Below are positions 41,636 through 49,689 of a stretch of DNA of 64,000 nucleotides, in pieces (the first letter of the stretch is position 1; each line of letters begins with the position of its first letter). The stretch spans positions 416,001-480,000 of the forward strand of contig OY729416.1 in NCBI GenBank assembly GCA_963422265.1, written 5' to 3'. The position numbers and the translations under genes were made by a program. The stretch is from Thermodesulfobacteriota bacterium. Lineage in GTDB: Bacteria > Desulfobacterota_D > UBA1144 > Nemesobacterales > UBA2774. The notes beneath the pieces are model-generated. The model did not search any database. It saw only the letters and a list, made by a program, of their open reading frames with translations, and was not told the origin of the DNA.

Positions 41636-41974
41636 ATGGACATGTTCATCTCAATGAAGGCTGAGACCTTAAATAAGGGTATTTACTTCAAAGAAACTTG
41701 GATGATGCAAATGCCCACAGCTCAAGGGTCAGGACACTTTGTGGCGGAGTTCAGGGAAGGAGACGAAGATAAGCTCAAGATATTGAAGAGATATGTAGCA
41801 ATACTTCGGGATAAGCTAAACGGTGAAGAAGGGTTTTTCATTGAGCATACGTCTATAGGTTTTAAGCTATACAAGCCAGTTGACGAAGGTATAGAGTATA
41901 TGGACGCATGGGAAAACTGGGTCAAGTTCACAAGAAGGCTCTGTAGAGAGCTAGGGGAGGTCGTGGGGGAGTAG
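41636..41974 (+). CDS. Hypothetical protein immediately upstream of zorA
   Basis: 112-aa ORF with protein-like composition; no recognisable motif. Confidence 0.7.
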   Translation: MDMFISMKAETLNKGIYFKETWMMQMPTAQGSGHFVAEFREGDEDKLKILKRYVAILRDKLNGEEGFFIEHTSIGFKLYKPVDEGIEYMDAWENWVKFTRRLCRELGEVVGE

Positions 41975-42023: not shown

Positions 42024-44060
42024 ATGATATGGCAGGATAAAATATCAAATTTTATAATAAATCCAATTACAATATATTCTTACTGCGCGTTAATTTCTGT
42101 ATTTGCAACCTATTATTTCATCAAGACTTGGAAAAGTATCAAGGAAATTTCTGAAGCTCTTGATGGGGCAATTGAGATAGTCACAGAAAATTCATCCCAA
42201 GAATCTAGAATCAAAATAGATTTTTATAACAACTTTAATGAAATTGATGATAAACTTAGGGAAATCCCACGATTATCTTATTATTGGGAAGAGTTTACCG
42301 AGAATCTAATCCATCCACCTGAGGATGAGAACAACAATATCGTATTAAATAGTCGTTTCCCATGCGACTATTTTGACGCTCAGGATCTCCTTGATAAACA
42401 AATAAACCTCAGACTAATTTTATCACTACCAAATATTTTAATTGGATTGGGGATATTAGGAACCTTCATCGGTTTGACAGCCGGAATATACTTGGCGTCA
42501 AGTGGTCTTGCCTCCAACAACCCGGAGCTTCTGACCTCGGCACTGGGGAAACTTTTAGAAGGTGCTTCGCTTGCCTTCTTCACTTCAATTACGGGCATTA
42601 TTTTATCAATTCTCTTTACTTTATGGAAAAAGCACGCAGTGAAAAAGGTAATCTCATCAACTGCAAGCTTTGTAAAAGCACTTGATGAACGACTTGAATA
42701 CCAAACGCAAGAGAAACTTACTTATGAAAGAGTTCAACGAATTTTGCAGCAACAATATAAAGCCCTAAATTCTTTCGCTACGGATCTTGCTGTTTCAATA
42801 GGGGATAATATAAAACAGCAAGTGGGAGAACCTCTCAATCAGAGGTTAAATGAATTTGTTAGCGTAATTAAGGATCTTGACGCTAGTCAAAGATCAACTT
42901 TAGACAAAGTCTCCGGGGAAATATCTGGAGCTGTTCACGATACTGTTGGTAGTGAAGTATCAGCACTTTCAGATACCTTAAAGTCTTCAAATACGATGTT
43001 ACAAGGCATGCTGAAGAGTATGCAGGATCAGCAACAGAATCTCGAGGGTGGCACTTTAAAGATAACGGAGCAATTACAGCGGAGCACAATAGAGAATAAC
43101 GAAAGGATGCAGCAAAAGATGAAAGATTCAATAGAGGAGTTCTCTGATTCATTAACGGAATCAACGCAAACCGCGTCGCAGACGTTTGTAGATAGTGCCA
43201 GCAAGTTTGCCGGGGAAATATCTGGAGCTGTTCACGATACTATTGGTAGTGAAGTATCAGCACTTTCAGATACCTTAAAGTCTTCAAATACGATGTTACA
43301 AGGCATGCTGAAGAGTATGCAGGATCAGCAACAGAATCTCGAGGGTGGCACTTTAAAGATAACGGAGCAATTACAGCGGAGCACAATAGAGAATAACGAA
43401 AGGATGCAGCAAAAGATGAAAGATTCAATAGAGGAGTTCTCTGATTCATTAATGGAATCAACGCAAACCGCGTCGCAGACGTTTGTAGATAGTGCCAGCA
43501 AGTTTTCAACGGAGGTTGTCGGGGTTCTCTCTGAGTTTAATCATGCGGTAGAGGCGTTTAAGTCTGCCTCGTCCGTATTGAACAAGACGGTTGAAATACT
43601 ACCTGAAAATTCTATCGCTTTTGATGAAGCGGCATCAAGCGTTAAAAGCGCAAGCGATGAACTAAGGATTACTGTAAACAACCTTTCAAATACCAATACT
43701 TCTATACGAAATGCCATTGCCGAATGCTCTCAAATCGCTGAGCAAGCCGGCGAGACTTCCGCTGTAATCGAAGAATTAGTAGAACAAATCAAGGGATTAT
43801 TAGAACGAGCTTCGGAATATAATGAAAATCTCAAAAACATCTGGAAGGATTATCAAAGTAGATTTGAAGGAGTGGATGTTTCCACCAAACTGATGTTTGA
43901 AGCTATTAATAAAGGTCTTAACTCTTATACAGGCGAAATAGGAAAATTCTCTAAAGATGTAGATTCTATGTTTGCTAAGGGCATGGATAAGATGTCTGGA
44001 GCCATTTTAGAGTTAAGTGAAGCAATTGAGGGTTTTGAGGAGGAGCTGAGGAGGGAATAA
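42024..44060 (+). CDS. zorA: Zorya anti-phage system ZorA (MotA-like TM domain plus long helical tail)
   Basis: N-terminal TM, MotA/ExbB-like LPNILIGLGILGTFIGL and AFFTSITG helices, then more than 450 aa of Ser/Glu/Gln-rich predicted helical tail; operon context. Confidence 0.9.
   Translation: MIWQDKISNFIINPITIYSYCALISVFATYYFIKTWKSIKEISEALDGAIEIVTENSSQESRIKIDFYNNFNEIDDKLREIPRLSYYWEEFTENLIHPPEDENNNIVLNSRFPCDYFDAQDLLDKQINLRLILSLPNILIGLGILGTFIGLTAGIYLASSGLASNNPELLTSALGKLLEGASLAFFTSITGIILSILFTLWKKHAVKKVISSTASFVKALDERLEYQTQEKLTYERVQRILQQQYKALNSFATDLAVSIGDNIKQQVGEPLNQRLNEFVSVIKDLDASQRSTLDKVSGEISGAVHDTVGSEVSALSDTLKSSNTMLQGMLKSMQDQQQNLEGGTLKITEQLQRSTIENNERMQQKMKDSIEEFSDSLTESTQTASQTFVDSASKFAGEISGAVHDTIGSEVSALSDTLKSSNTMLQGMLKSMQDQQQNLEGGTLKITEQLQRSTIENNERMQQKMKDSIEEFSDSLMESTQTASQTFVDSASKFSTEVVGVLSEFNHAVEAFKSASSVLNKTVEILPENSIAFDEAASSVKSASDELRITVNNLSNTNTSIRNAIAECSQIAEQAGETSAVIEELVEQIKGLLERASEYNENLKNIWKDYQSRFEGVDVSTKLMFEAINKGLNSYTGEIGKFSKDVDSMFAKGMDKMSGAILELSEAIEGFEEELRRE
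42913..43506 (+). repeat. In-frame 297-bp (99-aa) tandem duplication within the zorA tail
   Basis: Copy 1 is 42913-43209 and copy 2 is 43210-43506. They are identical except GTT/ATT (V/I), ACG/ATG (T/M) and the last base. Confidence 0.97.
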
Positions 44061-44067
44061 AGCCACT

Positions 44068-44802
44068 GTGATTAGAACAAGAAATCAGGCGATTGCAAGA
44101 CAGGGTGCCGGCACGAATTATTTAGCGACAGTCAGTGATTTGATGGCTGGCATAGTATTTTTATTCATAATAACGCTAATTATTTTTGCTAAACAAATGA
44201 GCGAAAGAAACCAAGAAATAAGGCAGGCTTCCGAGACAAGACAGCAATTTCTGGAACAGTTGAAATACCGTCTGGTAAAACATAATATAGACGTTCAGGT
44301 GATTCTTGGAGAAGGAGTACTGCGCTTTCCCTCTGATGTGCGGGGTGATCTACTTACTACAGGAATCCGATTTAGAATTGGGGACGAAAAGCCTACCAAA
44401 GAATCTATAAAAGTCATTCCAATAATAGCTAGGGAGTTGAGTGAACTTACACCATGCTTTACTGCCAATTGGACGCCAAATTGCCCTGACAAAAAGCCAA
44501 ATTCCTTTGTAGGAACCATACTTATTGAGGGACACACTGATAATCTGCCGGTGAAACTAAACAGTCAACACATTAGATACAGGAATAATATGGAATTATC
44601 TTCTCTACGAGCAAATAGTATATTCCTGAATCTTAGACAGGATAAAGAAACGGGGGAGCAATTAATGAAATTAACAAACTCAAACGGAGAGCGAATATTG
44701 GGAGTTAGTGGCTATGGTGAGTTTCGTCCCATATCAGAAAAAGACAGTGAGAATCGCAGAATTGACCTAAGAGTTTTAATGGAGATTCCCAATAGAGGGT
44801 AA
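44068..44802 (+). CDS. zorB: Zorya ZorB (MotB/OmpA-like)
   Basis: TM helix YLATVSDLMAGIVFLFII with the conserved Asp; OmpA-like IEGHTD, NMELSSLRA, GYGEFRP, NRRIDL. Confidence 0.92.
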   Translation: MIRTRNQAIARQGAGTNYLATVSDLMAGIVFLFIITLIIFAKQMSERNQEIRQASETRQQFLEQLKYRLVKHNIDVQVILGEGVLRFPSDVRGDLLTTGIRFRIGDEKPTKESIKVIPIIARELSELTPCFTANWTPNCPDKKPNSFVGTILIEGHTDNLPVKLNSQHIRYRNNMELSSLRANSIFLNLRQDKETGEQLMKLTNSNGERILGVSGYGEFRPISEKDSENRRIDLRVLMEIPNRG

Positions 44803-44811
44803 GGTAGCACT

Positions 44812-46224
44812 GTGGAAAATGAGAAGGTTTTCCTCTCAGAGTTTATTAAGTCGCTGACAGAGCGAATTAAACCTTTAAGTAAAAAGCGTTTTGATGCTAC
44901 TAATTTGATGAAAGACTCCTACAATGCGATGGTCGCTAAATTGTCTTCAGATCCCAAGCCTCCCCCTAACTTTCAAATTGAGCAAATCGTAGATGAAGCA
45001 GCGAACATCGTAAAGTTAGGACGGTCTCTTTCTCAACTACCTTCAAGAAAATTTGACATACTAATCTGGGGGTTGTTTATTCTATTTGATAATCAGCCGC
45101 CTTTTTCGGATGACCACGATGCTTTTCTGCAATTTAAATCATACAAACCAGATATTTTAAGCTCTAGCAGACGGCTTCGGAGAATAGTTAAATCTTTCCT
45201 AAAGGAATATCCCATCGGATCAGGATTGTTTGATAAGTGGCGGGAGATGATTGAAGAGAGACTTAACAGGTCAAGCCATCTCACCCTAGACGAGTTTTGG
45301 GAAAATCACAGAGAAAAATTTTATCTAAACGCGACCTCCTTGCATGCGAAAAAATGGAGAAGCGAATACTCTGCTAATAACGAGTTTTTAAGTGATCTTA
45401 GTTTACCGCTGGATTACAATTTCGTGCGACAAATTGAATTGCGCATATTGGAAGAATATGAAGTGAATATAAATGAAGTTTCTGACAAGCTGGAATTAAC
45501 TCAGAGGCTTGTTGATCTTCTTGAGCTAGAGGAAAAGAAACTCAAAAATGAGAGTCACATAGAACAAATAGCAGACGCTTTGTTGCAACCGTGGAAAGAA
45601 GAGGATCCCCCTCCAGATGTGTTAAAGCTAATTATGCAATTTTTGCTTAAACACTTGGGTGATCCGCGATCGAGCAATTTTTCATCGGAACGTACTCCAA
45701 ATAAATGGCTACGCGTTGATGAAGATACAAAGCAGATAATGCTCAGATGGTTAGTAAAAGAGTCGTTGGAACAGTTCTTTCAAGTTGTTAGGGAAGTTGC
45801 TTTTGACCAACATTGGAAATACAGAGAGGAATTTTGGAGAGCTTATTATGAACTTGATGTTATAGAAGATGCTTGGGTTAGTTTTGGTCCTAAGGCACTT
45901 AGTCACGCTAAAGAACGGAATCTCCAGAAAGATTCCTACGCTGAACTATTGTCTGGAGCTTCCAATCACTCAGTTTTATTAATGCGTATGGGAAACTTAA
46001 CAATCGCGGAGTTTTCCCATAATGGGAAGTGCAATATCTTTAAGGATGAGAATCCAGATAAGCCAGTCTTATATAAAGGGTACTATAATGTTTACATGCT
46101 AAGAAATAGTCCGGACTTTGTTCAAATTCACCATGGATCAGAGCGGGGAACGTGGCAGCAGAGAGTAGCCGACTACGTCAGGCGAGAAACGGGCATATAC
46201 TTGGAGAGTTGGAACTATCTTTAA
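44812..46224 (+). CDS. zorC: Zorya ZorC (EH-signature domain protein)
   Basis: C-terminal FF...REEFWRAY...IAEFSHNG...HHG...WQ pattern of the EH_Signature domain; position between zorB and the SNF2 gene. Confidence 0.85.
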   Translation: MENEKVFLSEFIKSLTERIKPLSKKRFDATNLMKDSYNAMVAKLSSDPKPPPNFQIEQIVDEAANIVKLGRSLSQLPSRKFDILIWGLFILFDNQPPFSDDHDAFLQFKSYKPDILSSSRRLRRIVKSFLKEYPIGSGLFDKWREMIEERLNRSSHLTLDEFWENHREKFYLNATSLHAKKWRSEYSANNEFLSDLSLPLDYNFVRQIELRILEEYEVNINEVSDKLELTQRLVDLLELEEKKLKNESHIEQIADALLQPWKEEDPPPDVLKLIMQFLLKHLGDPRSSNFSSERTPNKWLRVDEDTKQIMLRWLVKESLEQFFQVVREVAFDQHWKYREEFWRAYYELDVIEDAWVSFGPKALSHAKERNLQKDSYAELLSGASNHSVLLMRMGNLTIAEFSHNGKCNIFKDENPDKPVLYKGYYNVYMLRNSPDFVQIHHGSERGTWQQRVADYVRRETGIYLESWNYL

Positions 46225-46235
46225 TAGGAATCGGC

Positions 46236-49200
46236 ATGTGCGCTAAGTTGACCTATCACGTACAGGGTCGGTATATGGAGTTTACCGTTATTGACGGTGT
46301 AAACTCTATAAAATTTTCGGATTGGTCCACTATTAAAAGCCTACTGTCCCCCACGGGGCTTGAAGTTTCACCGGCCCCATTGCTTTTTCTTTACGAATCG
46401 GAAAAAGCTTTCTTAAGTAATAACGAAACAACCCTAAAAGTACCGAATGAAGAAGTAGCTTCTTCATCTGAATCAGAGAAGGTTAGATTGGGTTTCCCAC
46501 CAGTATTGCCTTATCTAATAGAAATACGTAGCAAGGGTAGGATTGACAATCTAAGAGATGAATTTCGTCTAAAAGTGTCTTATAAAGATAACAGAGGACG
46601 CCCAATACGGAAGCGGGTAAGACCTAAAGGTCCATTCTTAGTAGTTGGAGAAGAAAAGTACAGCCTGAACTCTGAGTTGTTTCAAATAATTCATCTAGTT
46701 GATGAGTTTGAATATAGCAAGATAGATAACCACAGAGATAGGTTTGAGCTGTGGGGAAGGATAAAAGCTCTCCTACCTGAAGACGCAATTGTTGACGATC
46801 ATCTCAAGCCAATCAACGTTATGGTTGCTACTGCCTTTAGCGTAAAACCGAATTTCTCTGATGTTGGGAAGCCTTCCTTTGACGTGATATTAGGATATAA
46901 CCGGCCGAGCGATAGCAACGAGGAACTCCTAGATTTCACTGAGCAAAAATCGTTTGATACAACTTTGCCTGTAGCACGCCAAGAACAATTTAACAACTAC
47001 TTCAGGAGTGACGGGGAGCCAAAGCGTCAATATCCTTGCGGGGGGAATTGGTACGTATTTATTGAACCTGACCTTCGCAAGGCGTTGACGGTCGTTAGGA
47101 AGGTATCAGAGTCTGGTTTGGACACTGTTCATAGATTCTTAGAAAATCCGCGGACGTATATACGTGAGAAATTGGGAGACGAAATTGATGAAGAGACGCT
47201 TGAAAATATGTTTCACGAGCTAAGCTTCGGAGATAGAGTTAGAGGGGTAGCTGAATGGCAAGTTCGAGTGGTACCATGGATCACGAAACCTACGGAGCAG
47301 TGGCTCCCTCCAGAGACGCTGGGAATAAGGTTTGGCAATGTTTCTATCGAAATTGACAAAAAAGATATTCCAACCCTAAAAGAAAGGGTAAAAGAGGCAT
47401 TGGACAAGGGTAAGACGGCAATACCTTACAAAGGCTATAGCATACCGGCTTCGCATGAAACGATAGGTGCTCTCAACGGGTTAATTGCAGAAGTAATTCC
47501 TAATAAGGATGAAATAAAACCTAGTGGGAAAGACGGTGGAGATAGAGATAGATATAAAGAGAATAGAAAAAGATACGTCCTTGAAATTGAAGATAACTTT
47601 GATGAGGTAACCTACAAAGCTACAGGTAAGAAGCGACGACGAACTTTCAGCGATTATCCGAAAAATCTAAAATCAAAGCTCTACGACCATCAGACCGCAG
47701 CGTTTAACTGGTTAAAAAAACACTGGAAGTTTGCCTCTCCTGGAGCCTTACTTGCCGATGACATGGGGCTTGGTAAGACCCTGGTCTCTCTATCTTTCCT
47801 TTCTTGGGTTCAGGATCAATTTCGTGCAGATGATAAACATAAGCCCCTTTTAATAGTGGCTCCGACTGGACTACTAAAGAACTGGTTAGATGAAATCTTT
47901 ATGCATTTGCAGGAGCCGGGATTAGGAGAAATTTTAAGGTGCTATGCAAGTGGTTTAAGAAAGCTTAAGAATCCACACGTTAAATCTCTTAACGAAATTA
48001 CTAAAGGTCATCCTATTCTGGATACTGAATCTTTAAAGTCGTGTGACTTAGCCTTAACTACGTATGAGTCTATGAGAGACTACAGAATGAGCTTCGCGCT
48101 TATTCAGTGGGGCTGCATAGTTTTTGATGAAGCGCAGAAAATTAAGAATCCAAGCTCCGATATGACCGATGCTGCTAAGGCAATGCAAAGTGAATTTATT
48201 CTTGCCCTAACGGGAACTCCAGTAGAAAACCGTCTCGCGGATCTCTGGTGTATTTTGGATACAGTGCAACCAGGACGATTAGGGTCAGTTCGTGAATTTT
48301 CTAAGAAATACGAAGCTCCAACTAGGAATAAAAAGACTGAAGCACTTGACAAACTTAGGAGCTTTCTAACTGATATCTCTTCACCACCAATAATGCTTAG
48401 GCGTTTTAAGGAGGAACATATAGATTGTCTGCCGACAAAGAAAATTGAAATTTACAAGGAAACAATGCCAGACGCTCAAGCTATTGCCTACAAAGACATC
48501 ATCAAACGAGAAAGAGAAACAACGGGAAAGCAAATATTACGAGTATTAAATGAAATGCGAAATAGCTCTCTACATCCATATCTAAAACGGAATGAGTCTG
48601 ATGATGATTATATTAACGACTCGGCAAGATTGCGTGCTGTTTTTGAGATACTTGATAGGGTTTATGGACAGAACGAGAAGGCTTTGTTGTTTGTTGAAAG
48701 CCGGGAAATGCAGCAAATCTTGTGTGAGATTATTCAGAGGAAATATCGATTAGGTTCTCCTCCCCTTATAATAAATGGGAAGATTAGCGGCGAAAAACGC
48801 AAAGCGAGAGTAGATGCCTTTCAAAACCGTAGTGGTTTTGGCGTAATGATTCTGTCACCAAAGGCAGGAGGGGTCGGACTCAATATTACCGCGGCAAGCC
48901 ATGTGGTTCATGTTTCTCGCTGGTGGAATCCGGCTACGGAAGATCAGTGCAACGATAGAGTATATAGAATTGGGCAAAAGAAAGATGTAACAATCCATGT
49001 TCCCCTCGCGATACACCCAGAATATGGGGATTACAGTTATGATCTAAAGCTCCATGACTTACTTGAAAAAAAGCGGTCCCTTAGTAGAACTATGCTTGAA
49101 CCCCCAACCTTTACGAGTGAAGAGAGCCGTTATTTATTCCAAGAGACAATTTCAGGAGGTCGCGCCAACGGAGCAGAACTCCAAGCTAATTTGAATAGCA

Positions 49201-49553
49201 TAGACTTAATGGAGCCTGTTCAATTTGAAGAATGGATACTTAAACAATTTAGCGACTCCGGCTATGAAGTAAAAAAGACGGGGGATTGCGAACTTGACGG
49301 ACTTGCAGTGAAAGGGGACTCCGGTTGGGCAATTCAGATCAAGCACATTCAGGGAAACTATAATTGCCCAGATAAAGCCGTTCAGAAAGTAATAGAAGGC
49401 ATCAACTATTACCCTGAGGCTAAAGGCTATAATAAACTCGTAGTAACAAACGCTAAAGACTTTACTTCCGCAGCGAGGTCCCTAGCAAAAGAGCAAGGGG
49501 TTAAACTTGTGGACCGCTGGGACCTACTAGACCAATTCTTCAATAATCTTTAA
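46236..49553 (+). CDS. zorD: Zorya type I ZorD (SNF2 helicase/ATPase with C-terminal Mrr-like nuclease domain)
   Basis: LADDMGLGKT, DEAQ, LTGTPVENR, GGVGLN, QCNDRVYRIGQ; C-terminal FEEW...GY...D...IQIK...VVTN..FT.AA Mrr_cat pattern. ATG 46236 (after AGGA) preferred to GTG 46152. Confidence 0.88.
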   Translation: MCAKLTYHVQGRYMEFTVIDGVNSIKFSDWSTIKSLLSPTGLEVSPAPLLFLYESEKAFLSNNETTLKVPNEEVASSSESEKVRLGFPPVLPYLIEIRSKGRIDNLRDEFRLKVSYKDNRGRPIRKRVRPKGPFLVVGEEKYSLNSELFQIIHLVDEFEYSKIDNHRDRFELWGRIKALLPEDAIVDDHLKPINVMVATAFSVKPNFSDVGKPSFDVILGYNRPSDSNEELLDFTEQKSFDTTLPVARQEQFNNYFRSDGEPKRQYPCGGNWYVFIEPDLRKALTVVRKVSESGLDTVHRFLENPRTYIREKLGDEIDEETLENMFHELSFGDRVRGVAEWQVRVVPWITKPTEQWLPPETLGIRFGNVSIEIDKKDIPTLKERVKEALDKGKTAIPYKGYSIPASHETIGALNGLIAEVIPNKDEIKPSGKDGGDRDRYKENRKRYVLEIEDNFDEVTYKATGKKRRRTFSDYPKNLKSKLYDHQTAAFNWLKKHWKFASPGALLADDMGLGKTLVSLSFLSWVQDQFRADDKHKPLLIVAPTGLLKNWLDEIFMHLQEPGLGEILRCYASGLRKLKNPHVKSLNEITKGHPILDTESLKSCDLALTTYESMRDYRMSFALIQWGCIVFDEAQKIKNPSSDMTDAAKAMQSEFILALTGTPVENRLADLWCILDTVQPGRLGSVREFSKKYEAPTRNKKTEALDKLRSFLTDISSPPIMLRRFKEEHIDCLPTKKIEIYKETMPDAQAIAYKDIIKRERETTGKQILRVLNEMRNSSLHPYLKRNESDDDYINDSARLRAVFEILDRVYGQNEKALLFVESREMQQILCEIIQRKYRLGSPPLIINGKISGEKRKARVDAFQNRSGFGVMILSPKAGGVGLNITAASHVVHVSRWWNPATEDQCNDRVYRIGQKKDVTIHVPLAIHPEYGDYSYDLKLHDLLEKKRSLSRTMLEPPTFTSEESRYLFQETISGGRANGAELQANLNSIDLMEPVQFEEWILKQFSDSGYEVKKTGDCELDGLAVKGDSGWAIQIKHIQGNYNCPDKAVQKVIEGINYYPEAKGYNKLVVTNAKDFTSAARSLAKEQGVKLVDRWDLLDQFFNNL

Positions 49554-49689
49554 GCTGCTCCTAAAATTAACTCGCTTGCTTTTATCACTATCTAAGCTAA
49601 CATCTACTTCTATCTTAAATATCCACTTACTTCACCATTTCAGCATAATATACTATTGCAGCCTTTACTTTTAGGAGAGATCATCCGGA

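Follow-up and report, generated by a model that had tools for sequence, protein, structure and literature searches.

A young 99-codon tandem duplication lengthens the ZorA tail of a type I Zorya system and likely preserves its helical rhythm

Introduction

Here we show that the cytoplasmic tail of ZorA in a type I Zorya defence system of a Thermodesulfobacteriota bacterium (assembly GCA_963422265.1) has gained 99 residues through one in-frame tandem duplication of 297 bp. The gene lies in a stretch of 64,000 nucleotides (contig OY729416.1, positions 416,001 to 480,000), referred to below as the window and numbered from its first letter. Sequencing-run data confirm that the duplication is real, and the hydrophobic periodicity of the protein indicates that the lengthened tail likely keeps its helical rhythm. 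From a survey of the ZorA family we conclude that tandem duplication is a recurring route to change in tail length, and we consider the event described here to be, rather probably, a tolerated, register-keeping and stable lengthening within the normal range.

The ZorA tail is known to be indispensable, with truncations abolishing defence in both the Escherichia coli (PMC11946911) and the Shewanella (PMC11890865) systems. In E. coli it has been modelled as a right-handed pentameric bundle of 507 residues and ~70 nm (PMC11946911), and helical periods above 3.63 residues, such as 11/3, denote a right-handed coiled coil (PMC8016460). The tail tests described in the available text of the two Zorya papers are truncations that remove unique sequence, with no natural lengthening among them (PMC11946911, PMC11890865).

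Results

The repeat occupies positions 42913-43505, with a period of 297, 2.0 copies and a 99% match (Tandem Repeats Finder). The open reading frame (ORF) 42024-44060 keeps its frame across both copies and encodes 678 aa, or 579 aa with one copy removed, in agreement with a preliminary description of the locus made from the sequence alone; that description had also correctly placed the duplication in the cytoplasmic tail, which begins near residue 225 and contains both copies at residues 297-494. At a lag of 297, comparison of 42913-43208 with 43210-43505 gives mismatches only at 42945 (G/A, V308/I407) and 43156 (C/T, T378/M477), the same two internal, amino-acid-changing substitutions as had been described. 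They had been taken for the only differences, and here the account needs a third, at the junction base 43209, which is G, versus T at both 42912 and 43506 (boundary codons TCC for Ser297, GCC for Ala396 at the junction and TCA for Ser495). Compared as whole codons (42912-43208 against 43209-43505), the copies differ at 3 of 297 nt, each difference being non-synonymous. The protein-level repeat score of this ZorA is 94, against a maximum of 7 among 251 shuffled ZorA sequences, and microhomology at the unit ends amounts to at most 2 nt, and that only if the junction base changed later.

Of nine listed sequencing runs, three from two studies were compared as contigs: X2 and X5 from study P2, perhaps the one behind the assembly itself, and X6 from study P3. 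A sample of ~1 in 100 raw reads from a fourth run, X7, contained no read from the locus and so has no bearing on the repeat. X2 and X5 each hold a collapsed 296-nt repeat contig together with a 61-nt junction contig at 43179-43239; the upstream contig stops 30 nt inside the repeat and the downstream contig begins 30 nt before its end, the layout that a genuine tandem repeat gives in a de Bruijn graph. In X2 the junction has a depth of 14.8 (flanks 15.3 and 18.9), a ratio of 0.97 to the upstream and 0.78 to the downstream flank; in X5 the depth is 5.0 (flanks 4.81 and 3.56) and the ratios are 1.04 and 1.40. The repeat itself stands at 1.59 (X2) and 1.80 (X5) times the upstream flank, where 1.77 is expected for two copies. 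X6 provides a single contig, 43179-43505, with the junction and both copy-2 alleles and 0 other letters, its entry into copy 1 being uncovered by contigs. This run has single-nucleotide polymorphisms (SNPs) and deletions of its own upstream of the repeat; the 8 of 11 pieces listed, ~2.3 kb in all, show 2 SNPs and 2 small deletions relative to the window, with copy 2 identical.

The preliminary description had doubted a simple assembly duplication, had left a merge of two strains open and had proposed a search for junction-spanning sequence and for halved coverage. Junction contigs were present in 3 of 3 contig runs, at about flank level and without halving. Two single-copy strains cannot yield an end-to-start junction, which excludes a strain merge, and a junction depth close to that of the flanks rules out an assembly slip as well as a merge; in addition, the genome is one 1.78-Mb contig, 99.4% complete and with 0.06% contamination. 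In favour of an artefact or a merge of two one-copy strains it may be said that P2 and P3 are known as contigs only and that P2 is possibly the source sample, and with the junction recovered across two studies we regard this explanation as scarcely credible.

Over ZorA residues 240-500 the hydrophobic period is 3.672, rising to 3.680 when one copy is taken out, and the duplicated segment has a period of 3.65-3.68 with or without the extra copy, above 3.63 and near 11/3, as in hendecad-type coiled coils. The 99-aa unit equals 9 x 11 residues, or 27.1 turns of the local single-copy period of 3.65. When the real junction was ranked among 11 candidate lengths it came first at start 298 and third to fourth at start 295; as a single case this is weak, as about 3 of 11 random lengths would fall near register. 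With 99 residues making up about 27 turns at 3.65-3.67 residues each, the register of the five-helix tail is likely preserved. The predicted gain in length is 13.7-14.7 nm, taking the tail from ~49-53 to 63-67 nm, close to the ~15 nm estimated earlier. Just after the repeat (residues 495-600, window ~43506-43823) the period switches from ~3.67 to ~3.5, with 3.49 measured over residues 495-600, and this suggests a change from right- to left-handed twist just past the repeat.

The family was surveyed in 280 ZorA-like proteins, which form 253 clusters at 80% identity, 251 of them with the motor domain and analysed further; membership in type I is uncertain for some of these, as an ORF that matches this ZorB at E 1e-6 was found in 39 of 80 loci. 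With the threshold for an internal repeat set at a score of at least 9 (shuffle maximum 7), repeats were found in 27 of the 250 other ZorA proteins, every one in the tail and 0 in the motor, two of the 27 being 9-residue units near the protein end. At lags of at least 10, repeats occur in 25/250 ZorA proteins versus 0/39 ZorB, 1/57 ZorC, 0/50 ZorD and 11/629 other ORFs of the source genome (G000). The median tail measures 499 aa with repeats against 370 aa without them. In a tree built from the motor domains of 245 proteins, repeats occur on 24 scattered leaves, which require 24 changes; the 62-aa unit of Poribacteria is probably shared by descent, hence the true events would be fewer than 24. 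The survey of homologues suggested in the preliminary description has in this way borne out the recurrence of tandem repeats in the tail.

The other repeat-bearing ZorAs include P0195 (40 aa, 98% identity), P0060 (117 aa), P0062 (95 aa) and the Poribacteria proteins with their 61- and 62-aa units. The protein studied here resembles them in having a tandem duplication within the tail, mostly of whole turns, and several have tree neighbours shorter by about one unit. It differs from them in that its unit is among the youngest, is the longest near-perfect one found and is supported in run data. This unit is without the conserved tip motif, whereas P0007, P0050, P0171 and P0179 carry two matches each to the conserved tip profile, P0171 being a protein of 1308 aa with a tail of ~1080 aa. 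P0195 holds another very young tail duplication at residues 354-435 (11.0 turns). In the Poribacteria ZorAs (L025, L030, L035, L038, L040, L057, L058 and L060) there are two separate repeat zones with differing copy numbers, made up of a proline-containing proximal 61-aa unit and a middle 62-aa unit, the latter in one to two strong copies plus weaker partial ones; in L060 a 100-N assembly gap lies within the repeat array. The ZorA of L062 has about four 37-aa repeats past the tip motif (residues 679-820), and an ORF of L015 starting at ~6670 (+) encodes a ZorC-matching protein with an 88-aa internal repeat (score 129).

Tail lengths across the family were compared with the helical repeat in several ways. 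The 14 resolved repeat units deviate from whole turns by 0.115 on average, versus 0.25 expected (P ~1e-4). With the period fixed at 3.64, the 12 repeats from a later search give P 0.005; the value of 3.64 came from the analysis of hydrophobic periods and was the best of four tried in an earlier junction rank test across repeats, so that only later sets test it fairly, and results at 3.65 for repeat units are post hoc. That rank test (P 5e-6) is biased for older repeats with an unresolved start and is not relied on. Sister pairs differ by insertions and deletions that, counted from 5 aa upward, keep phase at 3.64 (mean cos 0.60 over 31 gaps, reached in 0 of 100,000 jitters), as do 7 single-gap pairs taken by themselves (P 0.0008; gaps of 18, 22, 33, 55, 59, 80 and 95 aa). 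These figures come from 27 of 59 sister pairs, 32 having been dropped for identity below 45%; 10 of the 27 were without an internal gap, 12 gaps below 5 aa were left out, and the gaps of L057/L060 are unreliable owing to the assembly gap in L060. Anchor-to-anchor lengths, which need no aligner, give a best period of 3.646 with R 0.80 in 101 of 251 proteins, the other 150 having no unique anchor pair, and R 0.68 on the 46 distinct values. The mode of this distance is 260, and the present protein, at 362, stands at the mode plus 28 turns. Together these comparisons show ZorA tail lengths to sit on a ladder with a step of ~3.65 residues.

The preliminary description had further proposed that the near-identical copies let tail length expand and contract like an accordion. 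No one- or three-copy allele was seen in the contigs of X2, X5 and X6, contigs being a form of data that hides rare variants. The junction base and both copy-2 alleles recur in X6, so that the duplication likely predates the split from that strain, and the copies have likely neither collapsed nor been homogenised since; error-prone repair at birth could instead have made the 3 copy differences. In E. coli, type I zorA was matched in 88 of 5426 genomes, and among the 60 matches listed 58 are full, all exactly 2190 nt long at 89-100% identity. The remaining two listed are pseudogenes cut beside insertion sequence (IS) elements (L100 4001-4891; L101 4001-4654). Five multi-member clusters at 90% identity, four of them with a duplication, have full-length members of one length save for a start-site difference, a level of clustering that may itself separate length variants.

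Repeats of 297 bp at 99% identity are a good substrate for recombination. A contingency locus, in which recombination between the copies yields one-, two- and three-copy alleles that tune the sensor or evade counter-defence, would draw on this property, on the variation of strong and partial 62-aa copies among Poribacteria ZorAs together with the gap inside the L060 array, and on the repeat depth in X2, which is somewhat under the two-copy expectation. The evidence from the runs runs the other way, with a junction about as deep as the upstream flank in X2 and X5 (~0.97-1.04), no skip joint listed and a second strain that shares copy 2 without homogenisation; the copy-number differences are between species, with copies just 76-92% identical in DNA, and neither the 58 full E. 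coli matches nor the full-length members of the five clusters vary in length. We consider a fast accordion improbable, and the earlier proposal is in this respect not upheld.

By profile and structure-based matches the ORF encodes ZorA, and the type I Zorya system to which it belongs is complete, with zorABCD in order on the same strand (Table 1). The assignment to ZorA made in the preliminary description is accordingly supported by PADLOC, by Pfam and by a structure-profile match, the clade profile matching PDB 8QYD (E. coli ZorA) at E 1e-61 and 8VVN (Shewanella ANA-3) at E 3e-47. ZorA E90, E93, T147 and S188 align with E. coli E86, E89, T147 and S184, the Ca-site glutamates and the Thr and Ser of the ion path; in the hydrophobic ring the positions of E. 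coli I259, I263 and V267 are matched, and L261 aligns to P270. ZorB D24, N174, L177 and R181 align with E. coli D26, N152, L155 and R159, and Y151 aligns to N173; Pfam OmpA is under its cut-off in this protein, the PADLOC ZorB1 match being strong. ZorC E400 aligns, and no His pairs with E. coli H443 in the pairwise alignment, but H440/H441 lie at similar spacing. For zorD the longest ORF is 1133 aa, of which the true start may lie later, with Pfam SNF2, Helicase_C and Mrr_cat matches and the motifs GLGKT, DEAQ and D...QIK. All four reading frames are open. Most motor, ion-channel, peptidoglycan-binding and DEAQ residues of the E. coli system have counterparts here, the exceptions being ZorB Y151, ZorA L261 and the ZorC His. 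A promoter scan gave 2 sites versus 2.2 expected by chance.

Table 1. Features of the zorA locus, in window positions
Feature	Position	Strand	Remarks
112-aa ORF, family unassigned, left cassette border	41636..41974	+	present in 35/40 relatives; no Pfam/PADLOC match
zorA, 678 aa	42024..44060	+	motor to ~residue 225, tail ~453 aa; PADLOC ZorA1 E 1.8e-57
Copy 1 of the 297-bp / 99-aa unit	42912..43208	+	ZorA residues 297-395
Copy 2	43209..43505	+	residues 396-494; relative to copy 1: 43209 S>A (junction), 43242 V>I, 43453 T>M
zorB, 244 aa, MotB/OmpA-like	44068..44802	+	PADLOC ZorB1 E 7.6e-54
zorC, 470 aa, EH-signature protein	44812..46224	+	PADLOC ZorC1 E 3.6e-88; Pfam EH_Signature 151 bits, above cut-off
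zorD, SNF2 helicase with C-terminal Mrr-like nuclease	46152..49553	+	PADLOC ZorD1 E 3e-292
Native spacer before ileS, right cassette border	49554..49689	+	resembles relatives' ORF-to-ileS spacer by eye

The 112-aa ORF at the left border adjoins ileS in 11 of 11 relative loci examined, which marks the Zorya cassette as an insertion between this ORF and the ileS promoter region; no zorA was found in 40 relatives with the present ZorA as query. Contigs of X2 and X6 branch directly after the stop of the 112-aa ORF (41974) into other sequence of at least 255 nt, at a depth of 4.2 of 20.5 in X2. This sequence is absent from the source genome at up to 8 mismatches and so is not simply the empty site, and no rejoin before ileS was seen in the X2 and X6 contigs. 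The branch suggests that other cargo occupies the Zorya slot in part of the population. Elsewhere the genome has long arrays of 285-bp and 330-bp units and short dispersed repeats that are dense near the contig end (contig C1, 304000-323600, 855500-870500, 957000-961800 and 1650000-1783595).

Discussion

The closest type I systems are those of E. coli (ZorA of 729 aa, PDB 8QYD; PMC11946911) and Shewanella ANA-3 (696 aa, PDB 8VVN; PMC11890865), with which the present one shares the zorABCD order, a motor with a long helical tail and right-handed periodicity in the proximal tail. Unlike them, it belongs to a distant subfamily with a modal length of ~570-590 aa, in which this member owes its 678 aa to a 99%-identical tandem duplication, whereas E. 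coli zorA is fixed at one length in all 58 full matches. The Zorya type is known, and so is length change by tandem repeats in other long helical proteins. Our literature search found no report of ZorA tail duplications or of a length ladder; the Supplementary Discussion of PMC11946911, which lay outside the search, could mention length classes. Phage tape measure proteins (PMC13585406) are likewise long and helical and vary in length through tandem repeats; according to the available text their length sets a known ruler output, the length of the phage tail, whereas any ruler role of ZorA would be hypothetical. The ZorA tip is homologous to chemoreceptor bundles (Hu et al., PMC11946911).

Length steps that keep the coiled-coil register are familiar from the length classes of chemoreceptors and from the coiled-coil linkers of sensor kinases, which change by heptads and form dimers or hairpins. 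The ZorA ladder differs from these in its period of ~3.65 (steps of 7, 11, 18, 29, 40 and so on) and in belonging to a pentamer.

The likeliest origin of the 99 extra codons is one rare event, either slippage or illegitimate recombination, that used hardly any microhomology. To judge from the periodicity and the family ladder, the length of the unit would keep the hydrophobic seam in phase, so that the bundle likely still assembles in a longer form, and out-of-register versions would be removed by selection as breakers of the hydrophobic core. By analogy with E. coli, the motor would still sense envelope disturbance and signal through the tail tip to ZorC and ZorD. The extra length is probably tolerated and inherited stably, with no switching to and fro, and may be close to neutral. 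The two-copy tail of 453 aa lies at the 86th percentile of 213 full tails, the one-copy tail of 354 aa at the 32nd, and family tails span 307-560 aa (5th-95th percentile); the lengthened tail is within this range and shorter than that of E. coli, and the wide range makes added in-register length seem tolerated.

Several points weigh against a tolerated, register-keeping and stable lengthening. In the AlphaFold monomer the motor is confident, and the predicted local distance difference test score (pLDDT) falls below 50 at residues 274-316, 395-412 and 417-458, with the helix broken at 399-403 and 439-455 and hence not continuous across the junction; with the tail at such low confidence, the monomer model speaks neither for nor against a continuous bundle. 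Among the repeat units, two of 61 aa from Poribacteria miss the register by 0.35 and 0.45 turn. Taken alone, the 8 new distinct lengths reach P 0.10 at the fixed period of 3.64, and a fixed period of 3.62 gives nothing significant for repeat units. Kin are not independent, which inflates the ladder statistics, and the in-register bias could stem partly from mutation (similar codons lie one repeat apart) and not from selection. The repeat depth in X2, at 1.59x the upstream and 1.29x the downstream flank, falls short of 1.77x and leaves room for a one-copy minority. All 3 copy substitutions change an amino acid, a pattern that relaxed constraint would explain as well as any other cause. Finally, no close one-copy relative was found, so that the parent is inferred from distant homologues; the best were 26-30% identical among the 7992 best-sharing candidates scored, and 57 pattern matches in metagenome contigs contained no relative, in addition to one distant plasmid match.

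Some of these points would also suit decay, a scenario in which the duplication impairs or inactivates the tail and is retained since Zorya is no longer selected: the low-confidence model of the repeat and the three non-synonymous substitutions are compatible with it, as is the absence or replacement of the cassette in part of the population, seen as the branch at 41974. By our own estimate, three of three non-synonymous changes have a chance of ~0.4 under neutrality, and both the open state of the four genes with their kept motor, ion-channel and helicase residues and the position of the unit length on the family ladder speak against decay, which appears to us quite unlikely.

Selection by local phages could alternatively have fixed the longer tail for its altered reach, drag or rotor signalling threshold, or for placing ZorC and ZorD farther from the membrane. 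In X2 and X5 the duplication is fixed, or nearly so, among carriers of Zorya; it also occurs in a second strain and has been kept long enough for 3 substitutions despite 99% identity; tail repeats are ~6-fold commoner in ZorA than in control proteins; every E. coli tail truncation abolishes defence (PMC11946911), and the authors of that work propose more inertia and friction with a long tail (peer-review file of PMC11946911). Set against this are the breadth already spanned by family tails, the one-copy length being the commonest class among the nearest homologues, and the drift that could fix a neutral change in a small-genome organism. An adaptive fixed lengthening is on balance unlikely, less so than decay or an accordion, and tolerance without a selected advantage remains the explanation that we favour. 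A bolder and still speculative proposal, to which we give slightly more room, is that the tail acts as a phase-coded, length-tunable drive shaft, lengthened by tandem duplication only in whole-turn steps; ZorC and ZorD would read the rotational phase between motor and tip, total length would set reach or firing threshold, and the 99-aa step (~14 nm) would have been selected and caught soon after its origin.

Why the ZorA tail is so long was a reviewer's question, to which the authors answered that mutants of different length were needed (peer-review file of PMC11946911). The tip-keeping E. coli truncation described there (residues 359-592, 234 aa; PMC11946911) confounds length and content, and possibly register. 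The locus described here supplies two natural alleles, the longer of which adds 99 residues of the same sequence, and which insertion sizes nature accepts can be read from the family ladder; with the allele pair and the ladder at hand, length, register and content become separable. If register should prove to outweigh length, the tail would be a continuous mechanical shaft; if length should shift the phage spectrum, it would be a tunable spacer; and if neither matters, it would be an ordinary coiled-coil repeat.

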